Made by a program: the position numbers and the translations under genes. Under the pieces are notes generated by a model. That model had not been told where the DNA came from. It saw only the letters and a program-made list of their open reading frames with translations, and ran no database searches. Shown piece by piece: positions 1 through 9,595 of a stretch of DNA of 9,595 bases (positions within the stretch are counted from its first letter, which is position 1; each line of letters opens with the position of its first letter). Source of the DNA: a virus (lineage: Duplodnaviria; Heunggongvirae; Uroviricota; Caudoviricetes); IMG/VR virus record IMGVR_UViG_2541047688_000006, positions 1 to 9,595 of that record, one strand, 5' to 3'.

Positions 1-249
1 ATGCGTATTGAAATCTGCATAGCCAAAGAAAAAATGACTAAAATGCCAACCGGTGCTGTGGATGCGTTAAAGGAAGAATTAACCCGACGCATCAGTAAAC
101 GTTATGACGATGTAGAGGTGATCGTAAAAGCTACCAGCAACGATGGCCTTTCTGTTACGCGCACCGCCGATAAAGATTCAGCTAAAACTTTTGTTCAGGA
201 AACTCTGAAAGATACCTGGGAGTCTGCTGACGAGTGGTTTGTTCACTAA
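1..249 (+). CDS. dinI: DinI-family protein (DNA damage-inducible protein I-like), 82 aa
   Basis: ORF begins at ATG at position 1 (its RBS would lie off-window). The translation MRIEICIAK...[16 protein letters not shown] matches the recalled E. coli DinI pattern (MRIEVTIAK ... LQETWESADDWFV) in both length and termini. dinI-like genes are common prophage cargo. Confidence 0.8.
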
Positions 250-317
250 TTAGCACGTAAAATCTGTAACGGCTGGAAATCATTCAATACTCGCACTATC
301 GAAAGTTCACCATCCAA

Positions 318-357
318 CCGCAGCACGTTCTTGCTTAAGGCGTGTCTGCGGTTTTTC
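318..357 (+). terminator. Putative rho-independent terminator downstream of the dinI-like gene
   Basis: CCGCAGCACG (318-327) pairs with CGTGTCTGCGG (341-351) with one bulge around a 13-nt loop, followed by TTTTT (352-356). It lies ~70 nt after the dinI-like stop. Confidence 0.45.
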
Positions 358-675
358 AACTATTCAGATACATCACTCCCATCACATTCATTCCTCCGCA
401 TCAAAGGCATATAGGCTATATCACCTTGATATTTTTCTTCTTCAGATAAAAACTGTTATCTATGTATACTTTTAAACCCAATCCGTGTAGAGTCTCTGCA
501 TAAGATAGTTTGCAGTTGCCACTTCAGCTTGCGCCATAAACCGCCTGATTTTTGCCGCCATCTGTTAGCATTCCTGTATACCTGAAACGACAATGTTTAT
601 CTACGAACTTTAAGAACACCCAGGATAAAAATTGTCAACTATATCATATATAACACATTACTAATTCGAGGCTAT

Positions 676-789
676 ATGAACAGCATACTGATAATCACTT
701 CGCTCCTTATCATATTCAGCATTTTTAGTCATGCTCTAATAAAATTAGGGATTGGCATATCCAATAACCCAGACAAAACCGATGTATAA
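676..789 (+). CDS. Possible small hydrophobic peptide (37 aa), hypothetical
   Basis: ATG at 676 preceded by GAGG (668-671); translation [37 protein letters not shown], stop TAA 787-789. It has one predicted TM-like hydrophobic stretch plus a polar tail. It sits in an AT-rich region where Ile/Leu/Phe codons are enriched by composition, so it could be a chance ORF. Confidence 0.25.
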
Positions 790-857
790 GTCAACATATC
801 CTGAATCAGACATACAATATCGCAATGAAAATCAATAATATTTTAAGGAATATATTC

Positions 858-1091
858 ATGAAATCAAAAGACACCCTAAAGTGGTTCCCTGCGCAGCTTC
901 CTGAAGTCAGAATTATCCTAGGGGATGCTGTAGTGGAAGTAGCAAAACAGGGAAGACCTATCAATACCAGAACATTGCTTGATTACATTGAAGGAAACAT
1001 AAAGAAAAAATCATGGCTGGATAACAAAGAATTATTACAAACAGCGATATCAGTTCTTAAAGACAACCAAAATTTAAATGGTAAAATGTAA
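858..1091 (+). CDS. Hypothetical protein, 77 aa (alternative upstream ATG at 825 gives 88 aa)
   Basis: ORF track 825..1091. The ATG at 858 has a good SD (AAGGA at 845-849, ~8-nt spacer) whereas the ATG at 825 has none. Translation MKSKDTLKWFPAQLPEVRIILGDAVVEVAKQGRPINTRTLLDYIEGNIKKKSWLDNKELLQTAISVLKDNQNLNGKM; no family recognised. Low GC, typical of a horizontally acquired moron gene. Confidence 0.5.
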   Translation: MKSKDTLKWFPAQLPEVRIILGDAVVEVAKQGRPINTRTLLDYIEGNIKKKSWLDNKELLQTAISVLKDNQNLNGKM

Positions 1092-1407
1092 TATAATAAA
1101 CTTACTTTTTTATCATTTTTCCACTTTAACAACATTTTGCTCCACTTTTCCACGACCAAACAACTTGAAATCTGGTTAAAATAACACGCAACACTATTCT
1201 TCTTCCTTGAGTCCGCCCGGAACTCGAAAAACAAACCGAGTTAAAGCCATTTTTCACAAAATCGATTTTGGGTCTCACCAAAATTACGGGGTTGCATACG
1301 CATTCGTTTATTTTCGAACGTGTACATACAAACATGCACAAAAATAATCAAAATTATTTTCTGAGATGCATTATGATATGAACACCAATTTCGTATAGAG
1401 TCTCACT

Positions 1408-1998
1408 ATGTCTCGAATTTTTGCTTACTGTCGGATATCAACGCTGGATCAGACCACCGAAAATCAACGCCGGGAAATCGAAAGTGCAGGTTTTAAAATC
1501 AAACCTCAGCAAATAATCGAAGAACACATTAGCGGCTCAGCAGCAACCAGTGAGCGTCCTGGTTTTAACCGGTTGCTTGCTCGCCTGAAATGTGGTGATC
1601 AATTGATTGTGACAAAACTGGATCGCCTTGGTTGTAATGCAATGGATATCAGGAAAACAGTGGAACAACTGACCGAAACAGGTATCAGAGTGCATTGCTT
1701 AGCATTGGGGGGCATTGACCTGACCAGTCCAACAGGAAAAATGATGATGCAAGTAATTTCAGCAGTCGCTGAATTTGAACGAGACCTTTTACTTGAACGC
1801 ACTCATTCCGGGATAGTAAGAGCCCGGGGCGCAGGGAAACGTTTTGGTCGACCACCTGTGTTAAATGAAGAACAGAAACAGGTGGTATTCGAACGGATTA
1901 AGTCAGGTGTAAGTATAAGTGCCATTGCCCGGGAATTCAAAACCTCGCGGCAAACCATTTTAAGAGCCAAAGCAAAACTTCAGACACCTGACATATAA
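1408..1998 (+). CDS. Serine recombinase (resolvase / DNA-invertase family), 196 aa
   Basis: N-terminal catalytic motif [11 protein letters not shown] (Ser11 as the presumptive nucleophile, compare Y-x-R-V-S-T-x-x-Q in Hin/Gin/gamma-delta resolvase). KLDRLGCN matches the KLDRLGRS motif except for Cys76. Central ...[14 protein letters not shown]... and GRFGRPP motifs and a C-terminal HTH ([18 protein letters not shown]) are present. It is convergent with the tail-fibre operon, as pin is in K-12 cryptic prophages. Confidence 0.85.
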
Positions 1999-2095
1999 AA
2001 AATAATCTCGGTGTGAGATGCCTTACGTCTTCCAAGCCCCCTTCCTTGCCGTAAATGGAAAGATACATCTAATTATAGAATTTATATGTTTTACC

Positions 2096-2215
2096 CTACG
2101 GCAGTGCTGGCCATTCAATATCCTGTGCAGTTGACGTATCAACACGGTTCAGCAACACCCGATACTTCTTCCAGGCTTCCCGCAACGAGGTTTCTTCCTC
2201 CGTTGCATATACAGC
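2096..2215 (-). pseudogene. tfa: Remnant of the 3' end of a lambda-type tail fibre assembly gene (tfa), about 35-39 codons with no start
   Basis: Minus-strand translation of 2215..2099 gives [39 protein letters not shown], matching the recalled C-terminus of lambda Tfa (...[39 protein letters not shown]). An in-frame stop lies immediately upstream at 2216-2218 and there is no start codon or N-terminal Tfa sequence. Confidence 0.7.
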
Positions 2216-2225
2216 TCACCTTTTT

Positions 2226-2519
2226 TCACCCACGATTAACCAACAGCCAGACCAGCAGACACGCCACCACCGGCACAGCAAAATCCATCAGGCTTGCCAC
2301 ATCCCACGCACGCGGATCAAAACCGCCCCACCACGGCATATTCATTCGCTTGCCATGCCCGAACATTTCAATCCAGCGATATTCTGCCTGGGTATGTTCA
2401 CGCGCAATGAAGAACGTACAACCAGCTATCGCCCCGTAAGCCCAGTTTCCGGTAAAAAGACCAACCAGTACCTGCGCAGCCACAGCACAAAGTGCATGAA
2501 GGAAAGGTGTTATATCCAT
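2226..2519 (-). CDS. Small integral membrane protein, 97 aa, hypothetical
   Basis: ATG at 2519 preceded by a strong SD AGGAGG (4-nt spacer) directly after the stop of the upstream gene. Two long hydrophobic segments (about residues 5-37 and 75-94) flank a Trp/Arg-rich loop (REHTQAEYRWIEMFGHGKRMNMPWWGGFDPRAWD). No family recognised. Confidence 0.6.
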   Translation of the reverse strand: MDITPFLHALCAVAAQVLVGLFTGNWAYGAIAGCTFFIAREHTQAEYRWIEMFGHGKRMNMPWWGGFDPRAWDVASLMDFAVPVVACLLVWLLVNRG

Positions 2520-2529
2520 TACGCCTCCT

Positions 2530-3234
2530 TTATCCGATATCGCTTCGGGAAACGGATAACAACTTTAATTCTGACTCAAGTTCATCAACTCTTTCAGTCA
2601 GCTTCTGGATATGGTGAATCAGTGGAACAACCAGACGTTCGTACATTACACCTTCGGCAACAAGGCCATTGCTGGAAATGGTTTCCGGTGCATCATCTTC
2701 GTTGGCTGGTCGCCAGTGAACAAACTGAGGGGCAATTTCTCCTACTTCCTCGGCAATCAATCCATAGAATCCCCAGTCACGCCTGTCATTTTCGCATTGC
2801 GACCTGTACCACACATGGCGCATCCTGAAAATGAGATCGGCGTGCTCTGAATCTATCGTCTCTACTGAATGTTTATAGCGGATAGACGATGTTGACCGCA
2901 GCACAGACGAAATTGCAGGGTCAGGATTAAGATAAAGATTTGCCGCCGCTGTAGTTGTGCCCAATCCCCATAAATAAAACGCTTCACGGACAGTCAGCGG
3001 GTAAAAATCTCCGCCATAACGACCACTTTCCAGATCGTTCACTTCCACTTTGTTTTTCAGCTTATTATCCACTTCTGTTTTTGTGTATCTGGTACTGATA
3101 TCCTGCTTTGCACTGTCCATATCAGTCTGAAGCGTTGATACTTTTACGTTAATTGAGGAAATATCTTCCTTTGCCTTACTGACATCTCCCTTTAGCGTTT
3201 TGATGTCATCAGGAATTACTGTCGATGTAGCCAT
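2530..3234 (-). CDS. Tail-fibre-like protein with C-terminal S74-type intramolecular chaperone (self-cleaving) domain, 234 aa
   Basis: ATG at 3234 with SD GAGGAAG overlapping the upstream stop. The N-terminal ~70 aa are coiled-coil-like (K/D/S-rich heptads). Residues ~116-225 (SSIRYKHSVETIDSEHADLIFRMRHVWYR...DWGFYGLIAEEVGEIAPQFV...NGLVAEGVMYERLVVPLIHHIQKLTERVDELESELK) follow the recalled Peptidase_S74 / endosialidase-chaperone pattern (SDxRxK...v.Y.w...GfIAQEV.E.lPelV...L.vdY..LvplLieaiKeL), including a Ser116...Lys121 dyad candidate. Confidence 0.65.
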   Translation of the reverse strand: MATSTVIPDDIKTLKGDVSKAKEDISSINVKVSTLQTDMDSAKQDISTRYTKTEVDNKLKNKVEVNDLESGRYGGDFYPLTVREAFYLWGLGTTTAAANLYLNPDPAISSVLRSTSSIRYKHSVETIDSEHADLIFRMRHVWYRSQCENDRRDWGFYGLIAEEVGEIAPQFVHWRPANEDDAPETISSNGLVAEGVMYERLVVPLIHHIQKLTERVDELESELKLLSVSRSDIG

Positions 3235-3243
3235 TTTTCTTCC

Positions 3244-3525
3244 TCACATCCAGCTACGGAGTTGATGCTCAACAGCAACCGCGTGTTCATCGAATAATGA
3301 CGATATTTGCGAATCATTAATGATGCGCACATTTACAAAATATCCGTCCTCCTTAACACATACCGGCTCGCCATCTTCAGTAAGTTCTCCGGTTTCTTTG
3401 TACACATTACCTATCACGTCAATAAGAATATCATCCTGCATCGACTCGTCATCATAATAGCCAATGCTCTCCATAAAGGCCGAAAAGTCGGCCCTGTCTG
3501 CAAATTTGAGTGTTAAATCTTTCAT
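3244..3525 (-). CDS. Small highly acidic protein, 93 aa, translationally coupled to stf; hypothetical (possible fibre chaperone/accessory)
   Basis: Its ATG (3525-3523) overlaps the stf stop TGA (3524-3522) as ATGA. The translation has 21 Asp+Glu against 7 Lys+Arg. Coding-like composition; no family recognised. Confidence 0.6.
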   Translation of the reverse strand: MKDLTLKFADRADFSAFMESIGYYDDESMQDDILIDVIGNVYKETGELTEDGEPVCVKEDGYFVNVRIINDSQISSLFDEHAVAVEHQLRSWM

Positions 3526-5918
3526 TTAATACTCTCCCCCATTTGCGCATCAGTTAATTCTTTATGCCAGAGACGAAGATTTCTCAAATGGCCGAATAGA
3601 TGACGAGTTCCCGATGTGGCTTGACCTCCAATTCGAATAAAGGTCCGTGTTTTTACGCCCGTCCACTCCGTTTTCATAGTTTTAGTAGCCTCACCGTTAG
3701 AAACTACTCGTTTAGTACCATCAGAATAAATATTAAAACCACCAATGAATTTTCGAACATCAGCTCGACCAGCAAACACACTAGAAACGTAAGTACTTGT
3801 CGACGCTTTATAAGTTTGCATATAAAGCTGACCGTAATATTTCTCAGTTGTGTTAAAAGCGTATGTAATTGACTCAATAGGTGGCACACCAGAAAAATCA
3901 AAAATACGCGGTGCTACATTAGGAGGAATATCGCCCCAATTTCTATTAACCTCGACAAGACACGTAAGCGGTCTATTATAGATATTATTTTCAGTTGGGA
4001 TCGTCACCATATCACTGGAGCGGGTTGCGGGTGCAGTTGTCGTAATAACAAAAGATGAAGCACATCCGCCGTTTTCAAATTGTGGTGTTGCAAGGTAAAT
4101 ATAATCTCCCGCTTCAGTTATACCACCTTTTTTCGGCGCATACTGAATCATTGCGCCAATTAAGGTTTCACCTTCAACAGCTTCTATAGTTGCCTCATAG
4201 AAAATCCACCCTGTAACCGGATCTTTAGTTGCAGTAGCTGCTATTCTATTGGCTGCCCCGCCAGTTTTTTCTATTATCAGAGTTCCGAAAGTTAAATAAG
4301 CATCTCCTAAAAATGTATAAACCGACCCATCGTATTTTTCAAAACGCAAACGACAACGAAGACCATCAGGAGCTTTAACCCTGCATGAAACAGTGCAATA
4401 CTTATTATCGCCACTAACATCAATCCCCCGGGATGCACTGCATGTATGCAGACTAAGTGCAGATGATTGTCCTGTCATATTATCTTTTGTTCGCATTTTG
4501 GCATATGAAAAACCAAATTCATCAACACCATTATTAGTTTTATCGATATTGCTGGTACTCGTCCATTCAGCGGGAGTATTGGATTTAACAAAATAGTTAG
4601 TGCGCTGTCCTTCAATCAATAAACCTTCTTTTTCAAATCGTGGCTCATCAATTTTAGCAACACTAAATACGCCTGATTTATTGATATATGTGGCAGTTGA
4701 TGCGCGTTTAAACTTAACAACCTTGTCGCCAGGCATCGTTATTTCATCATCACCAATAACAATTTTTTTATATGACGGCGAAAAGCCCGTAATCATATCC
4801 AGTGAATCGTTAAACGGTATCCACACATCAGGCAGTGGCTGTAAGACATATTTATACGGCTCTGCTGCCTGACTTGCATACTCTCTGGCTGCGTCTTCAC
4901 TTGCTTTAGCTGCTGTCTGGCTTGCTGCCGATGCTTTCGCCGAGTTCGCCGCTGCAGTCTCGCTTGTCTTTGCATTGGTTTCACTGGTTTTTGCTGCTTT
5001 TTGACTGTTGGCTGATGCAGTGGCAGAAGCAGCCGCCGCGCTTGCAGAACCAGCTGCAGCACTCTCGCTTTGGGCTGCTGCATCCTGACTGTTTTTCGCC
5101 GCAGTTTCGCTGGCTTTGGCATTCGTTTCGCTGGTCTTCGCTGCCGTCTGGCTGGACTTTGCGTTAGTTTCACTCGTCTTCGCAGCTTTCTGGCTGTTAG
5201 CCGCAGCAGTTGCTGATCCAGCTGCTGAAGTCGCAGAACCGGCTGCCGCGCTCTCGCTTTGGGCTGCTGCAACCTGGCTGTTTTTTGCCGCAGTTTCACT
5301 GGCTTTGGCATTCGTTTCGCTGGTTTTCGCTGCCGTCTGGCTGGACTTTGCGTTGGTTTCGCTCGTCTTTGCGGCTGTCTCGCTATTTTTCGCGTTGGTT
5401 TCTGATTTTTTGGCTGCTGTCGCGGAGTTTGCCGATGCAGTCTTTGAGGTCGCTGCCGCCTGTGCACTATTAGCTGCATTCGTTTCTGAGGTTTTCGCCG
5501 CGTTCTTCGATGATGCCGCTGCAGTTTCGGATTTCTTTGCCGCCGCTGCGCTCTGAGAGGCGGCTTCGGCGTTGCGTACCACTTCTTCCACCATTGCCTC
5601 AAAACGACGCAATGCCTCCGGCATGACATCATCTTCCGTCATGGCACCGAGAAAATCATTCAGCGTACCTGATCTGGAACCTTCATAGACGGTAATGGTC
5701 CCGGCATGTGAAGGCGGAAAACCTTCAACCAGCAGGGTGACGCTGTACTGACCATGCTCAACATCCATGCTGTAACGTCCGGCTTCATCCGGATTTTCAG
5801 AGGCCACCGTGTTCACCACCACCGTGCTGCTGGTTCGTCTGGCCTTCAGCACAATGGTGCAGTTCTGTACTGGTTTTCCTGTGCCATCTTTAAGCACGCC
5901 AGAAATTTTTACTGTCAT
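3522..5918 (-). CDS. stf: Side tail fibre protein (Stf), 798 aa, mosaic: lambda-like N-terminus, Ala-rich repeat shaft, non-lambda C-terminal jelly-roll-like tip
   Basis: The N-terminus MTVKISGVLKDGTGKPVQNCTI...GFPPSHAGTITVYE...TLNDFL matches recalled lambda Stf (MAVKISGVLKDGTGKPVQNCTIQLKA...). An Ala/Ser/Thr/Lys-rich repeat follows. The C-terminal ~460 aa are unlike lambda and end in ...IGGQATSGTRHLFGHLRNLRLWHKELTDAQ, resembling the C-terminal signature of concanavalin-A-like / LamG lectin folds. GC drops by eye near ~4870. Confidence 0.9.
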   Translation of the reverse strand: MTVKISGVLKDGTGKPVQNCTIVLKARRTSSTVVVNTVASENPDEAGRYSMDVEHGQYSVTLLVEGFPPSHAGTITVYEGSRSGTLNDFLGAMTEDDVMPEALRRFEAMVEEVVRNAEAASQSAAAAKKSETAAASSKNAAKTSETNAANSAQAAATSKTASANSATAAKKSETNAKNSETAAKTSETNAKSSQTAAKTSETNAKASETAAKNSQVAAAQSESAAAGSATSAAGSATAAANSQKAAKTSETNAKSSQTAAKTSETNAKASETAAKNSQDAAAQSESAAAGSASAAAASATASANSQKAAKTSETNAKTSETAAANSAKASAASQTAAKASEDAAREYASQAAEPYKYVLQPLPDVWIPFNDSLDMITGFSPSYKKIVIGDDEITMPGDKVVKFKRASTATYINKSGVFSVAKIDEPRFEKEGLLIEGQRTNYFVKSNTPAEWTSTSNIDKTNNGVDEFGFSYAKMRTKDNMTGQSSALSLHTCSASRGIDVSGDNKYCTVSCRVKAPDGLRCRLRFEKYDGSVYTFLGDAYLTFGTLIIEKTGGAANRIAATATKDPVTGWIFYEATIEAVEGETLIGAMIQYAPKKGGITEAGDYIYLATPQFENGGCASSFVITTTAPATRSSDMVTIPTENNIYNRPLTCLVEVNRNWGDIPPNVAPRIFDFSGVPPIESITYAFNTTEKYYGQLYMQTYKASTSTYVSSVFAGRADVRKFIGGFNIYSDGTKRVVSNGEATKTMKTEWTGVKTRTFIRIGGQATSGTRHLFGHLRNLRLWHKELTDAQMGESIK
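4928..5567 (-). repeat. In-frame tandem repeat inside stf, period 189 bp (63 aa), about 3 copies of decreasing identity
   Basis: 5101-5289 and 5290-5478 begin with near-identical ~80 nt (gcagtttcRctggctttggcattcgtttcgctggtYttcgctgccgtctggctggactttgcgtt); a further diverged copy spans ~4912-5100. At protein level the unit AAKTSETNAKSSQTAAKTSETNAKASETAAKNSQ.AAAQSESAAAGSA... repeats. It also creates the spurious long ORFs on other frames. Confidence 0.8.
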
Positions 5919-5931
5919 ACTTTTCCACCAA

Positions 5932-5966
5932 TAAAAAAAGCCCGCAGCAGTGACGCCACGGGCTTC
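5932..5966 (-). terminator. Putative rho-independent terminator between lom and stf (minus strand)
   Basis: On the minus strand, AAGCCCG (5965-5959) pairs with CGGGCTT (5944-5938) around a 14-nt loop, followed by a U-run (plus-strand A7 at 5933-5939). It lies immediately upstream of the stf RBS. Confidence 0.45.
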
Positions 5967-6069
5967 AGGACAGTGTAACTTTACGTTTCCTCAAACGCAG
6001 TTCACCCCATAAGGTGGATGAACCTGCGTATCATAACAATATTTACAGAAGATAAATCGGCGTCTGTTG

Positions 6070-6669
6070 TCAGAAACGGTATCCGATACCAACAATAAAT
6101 GCATCCGTTCGCCAGTCGCCACTACCGGAACCTTCATAAGCAAGGTCAATGGTCACGGATTCGGTCGGATTAAACTGCACGCCAGCCCCCCACGCCAGAG
6201 ACGTGTTGCTGTGGCGACCGTCATCACTTCCGGTCAGCACATCGTGCGTTTTCCCCTTGTTGTCAGTTACGCGGAGATAATCCCCGGAGAAAGTCGACAC
6301 ACGGCTGTAAGCCACACCCACCATCGCATACGCGCTGAACCATTCATTCACGCGTACAGACGGCCCCGCCATCACGCTGAACCAGCGGTTACGCACGGAA
6401 TCTTCATGCCAGCGGGTATCGCTGTAGCGCGTTTTTTGCTCATCCTCAGCATTGGCATAACTGAAGGACGTAATCAGCCCCAGCGCGTCCGTAAACTCAT
6501 AACGGTATTTCACGTTAATCCCGTTCAGATCATCACTACCGGGAACGTTCGTCGAGGCATGGAGATACCCCGCGCTCAGCGTGGACTGATGTTCTGCTGC
6601 ACTCGCTGGCGTAGCAGCGGCGACCTGCCAGACTACTGCGGACAAAATAACAGCACATAATTTACGCAT
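6070..6669 (-). CDS. lom: Lom outer membrane protein (Ail/Lom/PagC/OmpX family 8-strand beta-barrel), 199 aa
   Basis: ATG at 6669 with SD GAGAGG. Signal peptide MRKLCAVILSAVVWQVAAATPASA. The body (HQSTLSAGYLHA...NGINVKYRYEFTD...RYSDTRWHEDSVRNRWFSVMAGPSVRVNEWFSAYAM...GIGYRF) closely matches recalled lambda Lom. Confidence 0.9.
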   Translation of the reverse strand: MRKLCAVILSAVVWQVAAATPASAAEHQSTLSAGYLHASTNVPGSDDLNGINVKYRYEFTDALGLITSFSYANAEDEQKTRYSDTRWHEDSVRNRWFSVMAGPSVRVNEWFSAYAMVGVAYSRVSTFSGDYLRVTDNKGKTHDVLTGSDDGRHSNTSLAWGAGVQFNPTESVTIDLAYEGSGSGDWRTDAFIVGIGYRF

Positions 6670-6692
6670 AATTACCTCTCGCTTTTCTGCAA

Positions 6693-6718
6693 TAAAAAAG
6701 GCGCCATTTCTGGCGCCC
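6693..6718 (-). terminator. Putative rho-independent terminator between J and lom (minus strand)
   Basis: Perfect 7-bp stem GGCGCCA (6700-6706) / TGGCGCC (6711-6717) with a 4-nt loop, followed on the minus strand by UUUUUU (plus-strand A6 at 6694-6699). It lies ~25 nt upstream of the lom SD. Confidence 0.55.
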
Positions 6719-6736
6719 GTATCTGGGTTATAAAAT

Positions 6737-9595
6737 TCAGCTAATCGTGATGCCTGCAGTGGCTTTCTTCATCACAACAACCAGCAAATCGCTGATACTT
6801 GCTGTGGGATACCAGCCATTTACCCACCATGCTGATACAGAAAACTCCAGCGTCATGTCGCCGCGACCAGCAGGCATATCAATAACACCACTGTAAACCA
6901 GCGTATTATCCATCGCGGTACGGTTATAAATTTCAGCACCGTTTTTCTTCACTATCAGGCGGCATGACGAATAAGTATCGCTGTTCTCCCGCTCATGTCT
7001 GGCACCGCTGAAAGCCACCGCCGGAATAACAATCTGCCGGTTAAACGGCTGATCGTCATAAACCCTGACGGTAATGGTTCCTGATGGCCAACGCTTCGGT
7101 GCACGGGAGTCACGAGGGAAAGCCTTACCCACTGTTTTAACGAGATCGCCTTCAATCTGGTTTGCAGACAGTTTCCCTCTGATGACACAGTTCTTGTTAA
7201 TGGTGACATTATTGAGCGTGCCGGTATTCGCCGTGATGGCTCCACTGATATCCGCATTGCGGGCTGTCAGCCTGCCATCCGGCGTCAGGGAAAACGTCGG
7301 AGGATTGCCGGATGACGTGATGCTCACCGCAAACAGTCGCTTCAGGAACACGTCGTTCATGAACAGCTGATTCCCCTGCGCCACAAACAGCGGCGTGGTG
7401 TTGCCGTTCTCCGGGGTAATCATCGCAATGCGATCGGCCTGCAGCAGAATGTTACTCAGGGTCTGACCATCAACATCCTCAATCCCCGCACCAATCCCGG
7501 CCACATAGGGAATACCGTTTTTTGTTTTCTGCACCTTCAGCATATACATGGCATTCAGCTCATTGCGCGTGTCTGACTGAACCCGCTGGATTTGCTGTAT
7601 GGTCACGGCCTGGTCACCCAGCTTTTTATCCGTGGTCGAGGTAATTTCACTCCCTTTTTTATCCACGTACTGGCGGACCTGTGCTATCTGTCGGGCGTTT
7701 TCTGACTGCCCCTGGCTGACAGTCTGTGAGATTTCACTGCTCACCCGGTCCACTTTCTGGCTCACCTGCGCGATGGCCAGTGTCTGATCCTCATTCTTTT
7801 TCGCAACCAGCTGCGTGAGGCTGTTTTCCGCCTTCCCGATTTTCCGGGTCACTTCTGCGATATCCGTGTCCATCCGCTGACGGATATCTTCTTCCAGTTG
7901 CGTGACCTCCGTACGCAGCGCTGAAGCATCAATGCGCTCTTTCAGTGCCTGACCCAGAAGCGTCTCATCTATCAGCCCCCGGAAAATTTCCAGATACCCT
8001 TCACCATCATTGCTGGGCTGCCCGCTGGCTTCCACAAAAGCAGATTTTCCCACCAGGTTGACGCTTCGCACGTAAAACCAGAAATCCGTCCCCGGCTTAA
8101 TCCGGCTCCCCTGGACAGTCCACTGACTGCCGGTCCCCAGATAACGGGCAGATTTTTCCACCTGTGCTGTGTTCGTGATGCGTTTTTCTGAGAACCAGAA
8201 TTCAAACTGTACCGTCGGGTCATACACCGCAAGACGCGGGACCGCCGTTATCTGAAAATACCCCGGCGTCAGCTCAATGGTGGCGGGTTTTGCAGGTGCG
8301 TTAATCCGGAACGATACCGACGCCGGATCGCCCTGCTGTCCCCGGGCATTTACCGCCCGGACCGTCAGCGTGTAACGCCCCAGCGCCAGCTGCCTGAAGC
8401 GGTAAGTGGTTTCCGCCGTCCGGGCCGTGCTGACCAGCCGCTCACTGCCGTCATCCGCTGTTACGGTCAGACGGAGCAGGAAGCTCACGCCCTTCACCAC
8501 CTTCGGCGTGTCCCAGCGCGCCAGCACCTGATATTCCCCGCTGTCTGCGGTGACTTCGGCGGTCAGGTGCTGCACCGCTGGCGGCGTGACACCATTCACC
8601 GTGCCGCTCTGGTCGCCGTCAAAGTGCGCTCCGTTATCCACGATGGCCTCTTTTTCCGGTACATGCTGCACGGCGGTGATGGCATACGCACCGTCATCGT
8701 TCTCCCGGATACTCACACAGCGGAACAGGCGCTGGCGCAGCGTCGGCAGCTTCAGCCCCCACACGCTGTATTCGGCAACGCCGTCAGGAATACGGCTCAC
8801 TTTCACCTTCACGCCGTCGGTGACGGACTGGACCTCCACGCTGACCGGATTCCCACTTCCGTCAACCAGGCTTATCAGCGTGGTGCCGGAGGATGGCAGC
8901 GTGATTTCACGGTCGAGCGTCAGTGTCCGCGTCTGGCTGTTCACCGCCAGCACGCGCCCGCCGATGCTGATACCCGCATAGTCATCATCACAGATTTCAA
9001 TGACATCGCCCGGTACATGGCGAAGCCCTTCTGCACCCACGCTGAAGTCCACGGTCTGCGTTTCCAGCAGCTCCGTTTTAATCAGCCACAGCCCGGCGCG
9101 GTGTGCCTGCCCCCGGCTGGTACAGCCAAAGGCATCCATCTTCGTGACGTTACGACCGTAACGGAGAATGGCCTGCGTGTCCTCCACAAGCTCTGTCGCC
9201 GTCTCCCAGCCGTTATTCGGGTCAATCCAGTTCACCTCAACGGCATTATGACGGTCCTTCAGGGCGCTGAAGCTGTAGCGGAACGGCGCGCCATCATCCG
9301 GCATCACCACATTACTGCGGTTATAGGTCCACACCTTATCCGATGGCCGGTCCTGCACGAACGTCAGCGTCTGCCCGTTCCATACCGGCATACAGCGCAT
9401 CGCCGAGCAGAAATCACTGAGCACATCCCACGCCTTGCGCTGCGTGGTCAGGTACGCATTACAGGTGATACGCGGTTCCGTGCCACCAAAGCCATCCGGC
9501 ACCGACTGGTCGCAATTCTGGCCGATGACATACAGCGCCCATTTATCCACATCCGCCGCACCAAGACGTTTCCCCATGCCGTAGCGCGGATGGGT
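6737..9595 (-). CDS. J: Tail tip attachment / host specificity protein J, C-terminal ~950 codons (5' partial; gene continues beyond window end)
   Basis: The frame is open from the window edge ([26 protein letters not shown]...) to the stop at 6737-6739. Size, position immediately upstream of lom, and the C-terminal ...[16 protein letters not shown] region fit a lambda J-like central tail fibre. The first in-window ATG is at 9577, but the true start is off-window. Confidence 0.9.

Follow-up and report, generated by a model that had tools for sequence, protein, structure and literature searches.

The 9,595-nucleotide stretch analysed here (positions 1 to 9,595 of the IMG/VR virus record IMGVR_UViG_2541047688_000006; hereafter the window) is the tail-fibre end of a lambdoid prophage, in which three small genes, orf93, orf234, and orf97, lie between the side tail fibre gene stf and a remnant of the tail fibre assembly gene tfa. 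On balance, this locus is probably the distal end of the lambdoid late (tail) operon, encoding a two-part, glycan-type side tail fibre and one unrelated passenger gene. An earlier reading of the stretch (the original prediction) took the trio for one unrecognised cassette, peculiar to this locus; instead, orf93, orf234, and orf97 are three separately exchangeable modules with different distributions, which reassort independently and do not make up one co-evolving cassette. The features that carry the argument are listed below, each with its basis where one applies.

3522–5918, minus strand: stf, side tail fibre, 798 amino acids (list of open reading frames, ORFs)
4599–4838, minus strand: Stf residues 361–440, the junction segment and upstream arm of the swap frame (identity bins of the alignment)
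3993–4712, minus strand: Stf residues ~403–642, domain homologous to the RcGTA head-spike fibre Rcc01080 (NF048003, PDB 6tb9)
3525–3968, minus strand: Stf residues ~651–798, probable ConA-like/Laminin_G_3 lectin-type C-terminal domain (Laminin_G_3 in relatives)
3244–3525, minus strand: orf93, acidic 93-amino-acid protein, phrog_1361 (ORF list; ATGA overlap with stf)
2530–3234, minus strand: orf234, predicted minimal second fibre: putative docking motif at the N-terminus, coiled-coil shaft containing a TRYTKTEVD repeat, short tip, and S74 C-terminus
3145–3234, minus strand: Orf234 residues 1–30, motif M[AV]T.T[VI]IP.DI..LK, putative docking peptide (second-fibre comparison)
2872–2889, minus strand: codons of Ser116 to Lys121 (SSIRYK), predicted autoproteolytic Ser-Lys dyad (family alignment)
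2226–2519, minus strand: orf97, three-helix membrane protein, 97 amino acids, phrog_1443
2301–2405, minus strand: Orf97 residues 39–73, near-invariant loop AREHTQAEYRWI..FG.GKR.NMPWWGGFD.R.W (family alignment)

The three accessory genes are closely packed on the minus strand of the stf-to-tfa-remnant interval. The stf stop and the orf93 start overlap as ATGA, a 9-nt spacer with a Shine–Dalgarno (SD) sequence of the GAGGAAG type precedes orf234, and a 10-nt spacer with the SD AGGAGG precedes orf97, so that the gene lengths, overlap, gaps, and SDs originally described are exact in both the ORF list and the sequence. All three genes are under purifying selection: the ratio of nonsynonymous to synonymous substitution rates (dN/dS) against homologues is 0.16–0.44 for orf93, 0.14–0.49 for orf234, and 0.11–0.24 for orf97. 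Positions 1900–3700 of the window are present at ≥80% coverage in 506 of 5426 complete E. coli genomes, and this recurrence together with the low dN/dS indicates that the three genes are not chance ORFs. PhiR49_1 and IdasGreatGrand, both isolated temperate phages, have the genes in the identical order, and in HannyBb a 940-base stretch that starts at the orf97 stop and takes in the tfa remnant and the invertase gene pin is 100% identical to the window. The census of variants used below comprises 80 E. coli prophage loci; a scan of viral contigs returned near-identical E. coli loci only and was used as a census, not as a diversity sample.

Genes of this set have already been deposited as hypotheticals in phage 21 and in BASEL phages. 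Searches of the literature for the protein accessions, phage 21, ECOR prophages, and separate S74 chaperones turned up no functional study, which bears out the earlier statement that the genes replacing tfa lack a characterised function, and accessory genes go unmentioned in the Eligo preprint on Stf engineering. In profile searches, Orf93 has no Pfam or NCBIfam match at E≤0.1 (phrog_1361 is a family of unknown function), Orf97 has none in Pfam, NCBIfam, or PADLOC, and the PADLOC-DB models match none of the three proteins at E≤0.1. For the superinfection-exclusion or anti-defence role that the original prediction put forward as one possibility, there is no PADLOC match, nor a predicted promoter of its own.

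Stf begins as a lambda-type fibre, with PF08400 at residues 1–131 (221 bits) and a tail fibre chain of PDB 9e7m matching residues 1–94 (E 2.8e-46); it also matches phrog_1419 over its full length. Its C-terminal region is non-lambda, and the tip is foreign to a lambda fibre, as had been proposed. An alignment of 11 phages (Stf and ten homologous fibres) gives the domain map. Residues 361–440 are 75–98% identical among lambdoid, T1-like, Nonagvirus, and T5-like fibres and 35–66% identical in the rV5-like Bas48; residues 441–760 are hypervariable (7–80% identity); and residues 761–798 are conserved again, the last ~40 residues reading HLFGH.RN.R.WHKELTD.Q. Across residues 361–440 the proportion of nonsynonymous differences (pN) is 0.05–0.17 against a proportion of synonymous differences (pS) of 0.42–0.67, which points to functional constraint at the protein level and not to recent DNA transfer.

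One domain of the tip resembles a head spike of a gene transfer agent: residues ~403–642 score 58.1 bits against NCBIfam NF048003 (cut-off 36), a profile of nine tips matches PDB 6tb9 (E 1.4e-13), and the RcGTA-spike-like domain overlaps the hypervariable 441–760. Laminin_G_3 (PF13385) is found in seven of nine family members, with a best E of 1.1e-6; the window Stf itself reaches 18.9 bits, below the gathering score of 27.6. From its domain composition, a glycan is the likely receptor of the tip. The Ala/Ser-rich shaft of Stf (window positions 4869–5525, minus strand) consists of near-perfect repeats (KTSETNAKSSQTAAKTSETNAKASETAAKNSQ...); because of these, other frames and the opposite strand also show long ORFs that are spurious (e.g. 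4793–5632, minus strand, 279 amino acids); the number of repeats varies among relatives and the shaft is shorter in IdasGreatGrand.

Orf93 is the constant partner of this one tip type, in which an RcGTA head-spike-like domain is combined with a probable ConA-like lectin domain. The gene directly follows and overlaps a homologous-tip fibre gene in every lineage examined, namely the lambdoid phages 21 and 1H12, the T1-like Bas05 PeterMerian, the T5-like VSe12, the Nonagvirus JenP2, and the rV5-like Bas48 CarlMeissner, and the C-terminal ~430–560 residues of the preceding fibres are homologous to the window Stf. It is also present in at least 76 of the 80 E. coli prophage loci, including a divergent 89-amino-acid form beside a divergent Stf end. 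Between loci, Orf93 identity follows that of the last 40 Stf residues (Spearman rho 0.77), the junction (0.68), and the second-fibre N-terminus (0.63), and does not track the variable region of Stf (rho 0.10–0.24). The last 430 residues of Stf were considered as a unit co-varying with Orf93, and this was rejected: the frame alone co-varies, and the variable region does not.

The protein is acidic, as originally described (isoelectric point 4.1; 21 D+E against 7 K+R). An exhaustive phmmer/HMMER search placed its family in 47 clusters at 50% identity, all of them stand-alone proteins of ~90–110 amino acids, with no fusions that would reveal a partner. None of the orf93-bearing phages examined has an intact tfa beside the fibre gene, and at the window locus the 3' scar alone remains, in keeping with the proposal that Tfa is functionally replaced here. 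From these comparisons we infer that Orf93 may help to assemble the conserved tip frame or stay bound to it as a partner, as an analogue and not a homologue of Tfa. The proposed linkage of the trio to the tip type accordingly survives for orf93, found with the tip in at least five lineages, and not for its neighbours, orf234 being optional and orf97 independent of the tip; that the gene set travels with the host-range determinant is borne out.

As far as sequence comparison can tell, Orf234 is a second fibre with an S74 domain, of a kind that is optional and exchangeable, in its shortest version. Residues 116–172 match Pfam Peptidase_S74 (PF13884) with 24.7 bits, above the gathering score of 22, and the ~346-amino-acid alternative second fibres reach 52–59 bits against the same model. 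The N-terminal half gives coiled-coil-type matches, as had been noted, together with the LtfA shaft repeat within residues 9–68, and the hits of a PDB search were the chaperone region at the C-terminus of DT57C LtfA and the TYTKTEVD shaft repeats. Ser116 and Lys121 are invariant among 26 aligned family members. Based on the domain and this dyad, Orf234 is predicted to cleave itself at Ser116, and the self-cleaving mini-fibre of the original prediction is retained at that strength; a cut there would yield a 12.6-kDa N-terminal product (115 residues) and a 13.8-kDa C-terminal one.

The opening residues of Orf234 are shared well beyond the lambdoid phages. Their identity is 72–100% among lambdoid proteins and 52–57% in T1-like phages and Nonagvirus, the motif is also present in the T5-like VSe12, and M[AV]T.T[VI]IP is common to second fibres of 231–348 amino acids in four lineages. 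It is therefore these N-terminal ~30 residues through which Orf234 may dock on Stf. In PhiR46_1, HannyBb, and the virulent JenP2, the orf234 slot is filled by ~346-amino-acid S74 proteins with the same N-terminus. Among the 80 prophage loci the slot holds the 234-amino-acid type in 34 and the ~346-amino-acid type in 21, and is empty in 23; the 234-amino-acid type is paired with at least six Stf variable types. Orf234 homologues are mostly stand-alone proteins of 220–270 amino acids, and T1-like phages encode one at the same position, annotated as "putative lateral tail fiber chaperone". The optional slot, the free reassortment, and the conserved N-terminus argue for an exchangeable second fibre and not for a chaperone matched to the Stf tip.

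In VSe12 the N-terminal motif stands where the shaft of LtfA runs on uninterrupted. This Salmonella phage seems to have a mis-annotated or split second fibre (L006, 5289–7018): an ORF starting MVTKTVIPTDITKLK lies 9 nt past the 92-amino-acid gene and upstream of the annotated start, and LtfB-like (65% identity) and S74 segments lie downstream in separate annotated genes. Orthology of the Orf234-type second fibres with LtfB at the docking end was also considered and was rejected, as BLASTP finds no similarity between the N-terminus of DT57C LtfB and the motif.

To judge from its distribution and fold, Orf97 is most likely a passenger, which accompanies receptor-binding genes and would act in the cell envelope. 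It is hydrophobic, and its AlphaFold2 model has a high predicted local distance difference test score (pLDDT 93) and three helices (residues 4–23, 26–53, and 74–96), in agreement with the membrane protein first described. Within the family (583 homologues) the transmembrane segments vary and the loop is almost invariant. The loop contains a mean of 5.5 K+R, against ≤0.6 in the other non-membrane segments, and because positive charge is concentrated there it is probably cytoplasmic. Orf97 is 94–98% identical where tips are 45–61% identical and second fibres differ, and the gene is absent from T1-like, T5-like, Nonagvirus, and rV5-like phages carrying the same fibre module; this near-identity across tips and the absence from four lineages argue against functional membership in the fibre.

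Family members occur directly after a tailspike gene in the P22-like phage JEP4, directly after the tail-fibre assembly (Tfa) gene of the P2-like Halomonas phage phiHAP-1, directly after ~950-amino-acid S74 fibres in Aeromonas media and Leclercia prophages, directly after a J-like gene in a Comamonas prophage, and between tailspike genes in an Ackermannviridae-type virulent phage. A restriction of the family to temperate phages was dropped after this last find. The family adjoins, and often overlaps, the last receptor-binding gene, spans all three tail morphotypes, and is nameless in every library; copies lie at 2226–2519 (minus strand) in the window and at 3989–4288, 4001–4306, 5001–5309, 5001–5297, and 5001–5297 in the comparison loci L016, L017, L019, L020, and L021, respectively.

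Under the favoured reading, Stf would trimerise and attach to the tail through its lambda-type N-terminus, and the variable middle of the tip (441–760) would be exchanged inside a frame formed by residues 361–440 and the last ~40 residues. The ATGA overlap would ensure that Orf93 is made in step with Stf, and Orf93 would act on the conserved frame, either as a dedicated assembly factor or as a partner that stays bound, doing the job of Tfa for this tip. The S74 domain of Orf234 would drive trimerisation and then cut itself off at Ser116, and the remaining 115-residue coiled-coil stub would dock on Stf through its N-terminal ~30 residues as a second, independently swappable binding module. Orf97 would stand outside the fibre, as a small inner-membrane protein in the envelope of the infected or lysogenic cell, acting for example in exclusion or in control of the surface or of entry.

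Part of this layout is of a known kind. The T5-like phages DT57C and DT571/2 have branched lateral fibres that consist of a pair of proteins, LtfA plus LtfB, as established genetically; in LtfB, 45 conserved N-terminal residues are proposed to provide the docking contact with LtfA, and gp14 and gp15 of phiEco32 are a further two-protein pair (PMC4728585, PMC10713586). The BASEL paper describes the same fibre diversity in small siphoviruses (PMC8594841). The original prediction could name no matching module; the arrangement of a fibre gene followed by an S74 second-fibre gene nevertheless corresponds to the two-protein lateral fibres of T5-like phages (PMC4728585, PMC8594841). As in LtfA/LtfB, the gene of a primary, tail-attached fibre is followed by that of a second fibre with an S74 C-terminus and a short conserved N-terminal module, the distal parts of the second fibres are variable, and the second fibre would add an independent specificity. 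Unlike in LtfA/LtfB, the N-terminal motif of the window protein is not LtfB-homologous, the primary fibre lacks S74, a 93-amino-acid gene always lies between the two fibre genes, and the second fibre is reduced to a minimum, its mature part having ~115 residues.

Other systems share single elements with the locus. Like the K1F endosialidase and T5 pb1, Orf234 has an S74 domain (above threshold), with an invariant Ser-x4-Lys dyad, C-terminal to a trimeric part; here, however, the domain is on a tiny stand-alone protein and not on the main fibre, and cleavage is predicted. The lambda Stf-Tfa pair (also Mu S-U and P2 H-G) shares the small co-expressed gene immediately downstream, with a PF08400 Stf N-terminus and Orf93 in the place of Tfa, but Orf93 is half the size of Tfa and has no sequence similarity to it, and the tip is GTA-spike/ConA-like and not of the lambda/T4 gp37 type. 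The RcGTA spike Rcc01080 (PDB 6tb9) is homologous to Stf ~403–642, although here it forms part of a tail fibre, with a probable ConA-like domain after it. The closest gene neighbourhoods are those of phage 21 (CPT_21_22 to _24), with stf, a 92-amino-acid gene, and a 97-amino-acid "putative membrane protein" 97% identical to Orf97, and of Bas05 PeterMerian (bas05_0031 to _0029), with a lateral tail fibre (LTF) gene, a 92-amino-acid gene, and a 231-amino-acid "putative lateral tail fiber chaperone" 55% identical to Orf234; neither carries all three accessory genes.

Exclusion proteins are encoded beside or within tail or receptor-binding protein (RBP) genes in several phages, including T5 Llp, Cor of phi80, N15, and T1-like phages, and HK97 gp15 (see also PMC4728585 and PMC8594841); the lipoproteins Llp and Cor are each specific to a receptor and co-vary with their own RBP. 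Orf97 resembles them as a small envelope protein encoded beside adsorption genes, and a functional analogy is possible. It differs from them in lacking homology (PADLOC, Pfam, and PHROG annotation are negative) and in being invariant across RBP types.

Alternative accounts of the fibre genes differ in how well they meet these observations. That the locus is recombination debris, with orf234 the orphaned end of a long fibre gene and the small ORFs decaying beside a truncated tfa, is very improbable and largely refuted. Orf234 does cover only positions 1147–1384 of the 1385-position phrog_3299, and a tfa scar and an orphan invertase adjoin the cassette, but all three genes have dN/dS of 0.11–0.49 with conserved starts, SDs, and spacing, stand-alone 220–270-residue proteins dominate the Orf234 family, isolated phages, virulent ones among them, carry the same genes, and the tfa scar is shared with phage 21. 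It is also improbable, if less so, that Orf234 is a trans-acting folding chaperone of the Stf tip and not a fibre of its own, as the BASEL label implies. S74 is a chaperone domain, Stf has neither its own S74 nor a Tfa, and the homologues in Bas05 and KarlJaspers are labelled as chaperones. However, homologous tips do without Orf234 in phage 21, in 1H12, and in the 23 empty prophage loci, the protein reassorts freely with at least six tip variable types, and it contains fibre-shaft repeats and the N-terminal motif common to longer S74 fibres; to our knowledge, moreover, the known S74 domains (endosialidase, T5 pb1, LtfA/LtfB) act in cis on their own polypeptide.

For Orf93, a role as a structural adaptor, or "knee", that joins the second fibre to Stf, in place of a tip chaperone, seems unlikely. 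In E. coli prophages the window-type Orf93 occurs with a second fibre at 46/46 loci and the phage-21 type at 0/25, and Orf93 identity correlates with that of the second-fibre N-terminus, as given above. Against this, Orf93 is full length with conserved motifs in phages that lack a second fibre, and in the second-fibre phages Bas05, JenP2, and VSe12 it is nearer the phage-21 type than the window type, so the association in prophages is probably linkage. We likewise doubt that Orf97 works directly for the receptor-binding proteins, for example as a factor at the membrane in their assembly or maturation or as a late one related to lysis, and not in the envelope or in exclusion. The close translational coupling of orf97 to the late fibre genes, the position of its family beside receptor-binding genes even in the virulent Ackermannviridae-type phage, and a conserved loop that is probably cytoplasmic, where fibres fold, would fit such a role, as would the absence of a predicted promoter of its own. 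However, four virulent lineages have the homologous fibre module but not this gene, the protein is nearly identical beside very different fibres, and one homologue in Aeromonas rivipollensis is a stand-alone copy in a non-phage chromosomal context.

A number of observations weigh against a two-part fibre with one passenger as well. Orf93 belongs neither to the Tfa families (e.g. Pfam Caudo_TAP) nor to NCBIfam or PHROG chaperone families, its AlphaFold2 model (pLDDT 50, from an alignment of 35 sequences 82–99% identical) is too poor for use, and its co-variation with neighbouring segments could reflect genetic linkage alone. The N-terminal motif of Orf234 is not homologous to the LtfB docking module, and a mature part of 115 residues is very short for a receptor-binding fibre. 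Fold searches with Orf97 returned generic helical bundles only and are uninformative, and the lack of a predicted orf97 promoter and the chromosomal A. rivipollensis copy both sit poorly with an envelope passenger of phage receptor-binding genes. More tentative than the reading as a whole is the stronger proposal that Orf97 represents an undescribed class of phage function directed at a conserved host envelope or entry component (in adsorption, superinfection, or surface-glycan control) and that Orf93 represents a new, non-Tfa family of tip-assembly proteins in at least five lineages.

The surroundings of the fibre module contain the following further features.

6737–9577, minus strand: J (ORF list)
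6070–6669, minus strand: lom (ORF list)
5937–5966, minus strand: terminator-like hairpin between lom and stf
2096–2206, minus strand: tfa 3' remnant, last ~36–39 codons (PGAP annotation in L001 and translation)
1408–1998, plus strand: pin-type serine DNA invertase, 196 amino acids (Resolvase and HTH_7), convergent with the fibre genes

The hairpin between lom and stf is strong (13 pairs and a T run), and phage 21 has an annotated terminator at the equivalent place; given its position, the fibre genes would depend on antiterminated late transcription. A truncated tfa is present, as claimed, both in translation and in the PGAP annotation "tail fiber assembly protein, missing N-terminus" of a 99.9% identical genome (L001). 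Its truncation is not a local event: the first 91 nt past orf97, running into the tfa remnant, are common to phages 21 and 1H12, which makes it an old scar of the lambdoid lineage and not a recent event in this prophage. Both of these phages run into the sit operon after the shared 91 nt. The sitABCD iron/manganese transporter operon is inserted after this stretch in phage 21 and related Jouyvirus phages, which marks the spot as a cargo insertion point.

The pin gene is intact in the window, annotated as pinQ in relatives, and frameshifted in L001. A pattern search around it for a Gin/Hin-type crossover site gave no match, and no suitable inverted repeats were found flanking it; pin thus appears to be an orphan invertase with no recognisable invertible segment left. 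The left flank is unlike that of Qin-type relatives. A DinI-like gene (1–249, plus strand) is cut off by the window start, an 88-amino-acid protein (phrog_2718) is encoded at 825–1091 (plus strand), and the ~550 bases between them (250–800) are AT-rich (33–42% GC), with short, weak ORFs only (the largest 45 amino acids) and no Rfam match; an Rfam scan of the entire window found nothing.

The fibre with an S74 second fibre is a layout of an already known kind, and what is newest at the locus is the Orf97 family, along with Orf93 as a family of fibre partners distinct from Tfa. The host range of coliphages is determined by their side and lateral tail fibres, which are being engineered for use in phage therapy and DNA delivery. 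The very common GTA-spike-like and lectin-like tip found here is paired not with Tfa but with a specific 93-amino-acid partner, and transplants of this tip would probably need orf93 to be carried along. Its conserved frame permits a swap of the variable binding domain, and an optional plug-in second fibre would add to it through a conserved, putative docking motif that could itself be exploited. Orf97, finally, belongs to a widespread, strongly conserved, and unnamed family tied to receptor-binding genes across tail morphotypes, and is a candidate for a phage function at the level of the cell envelope.

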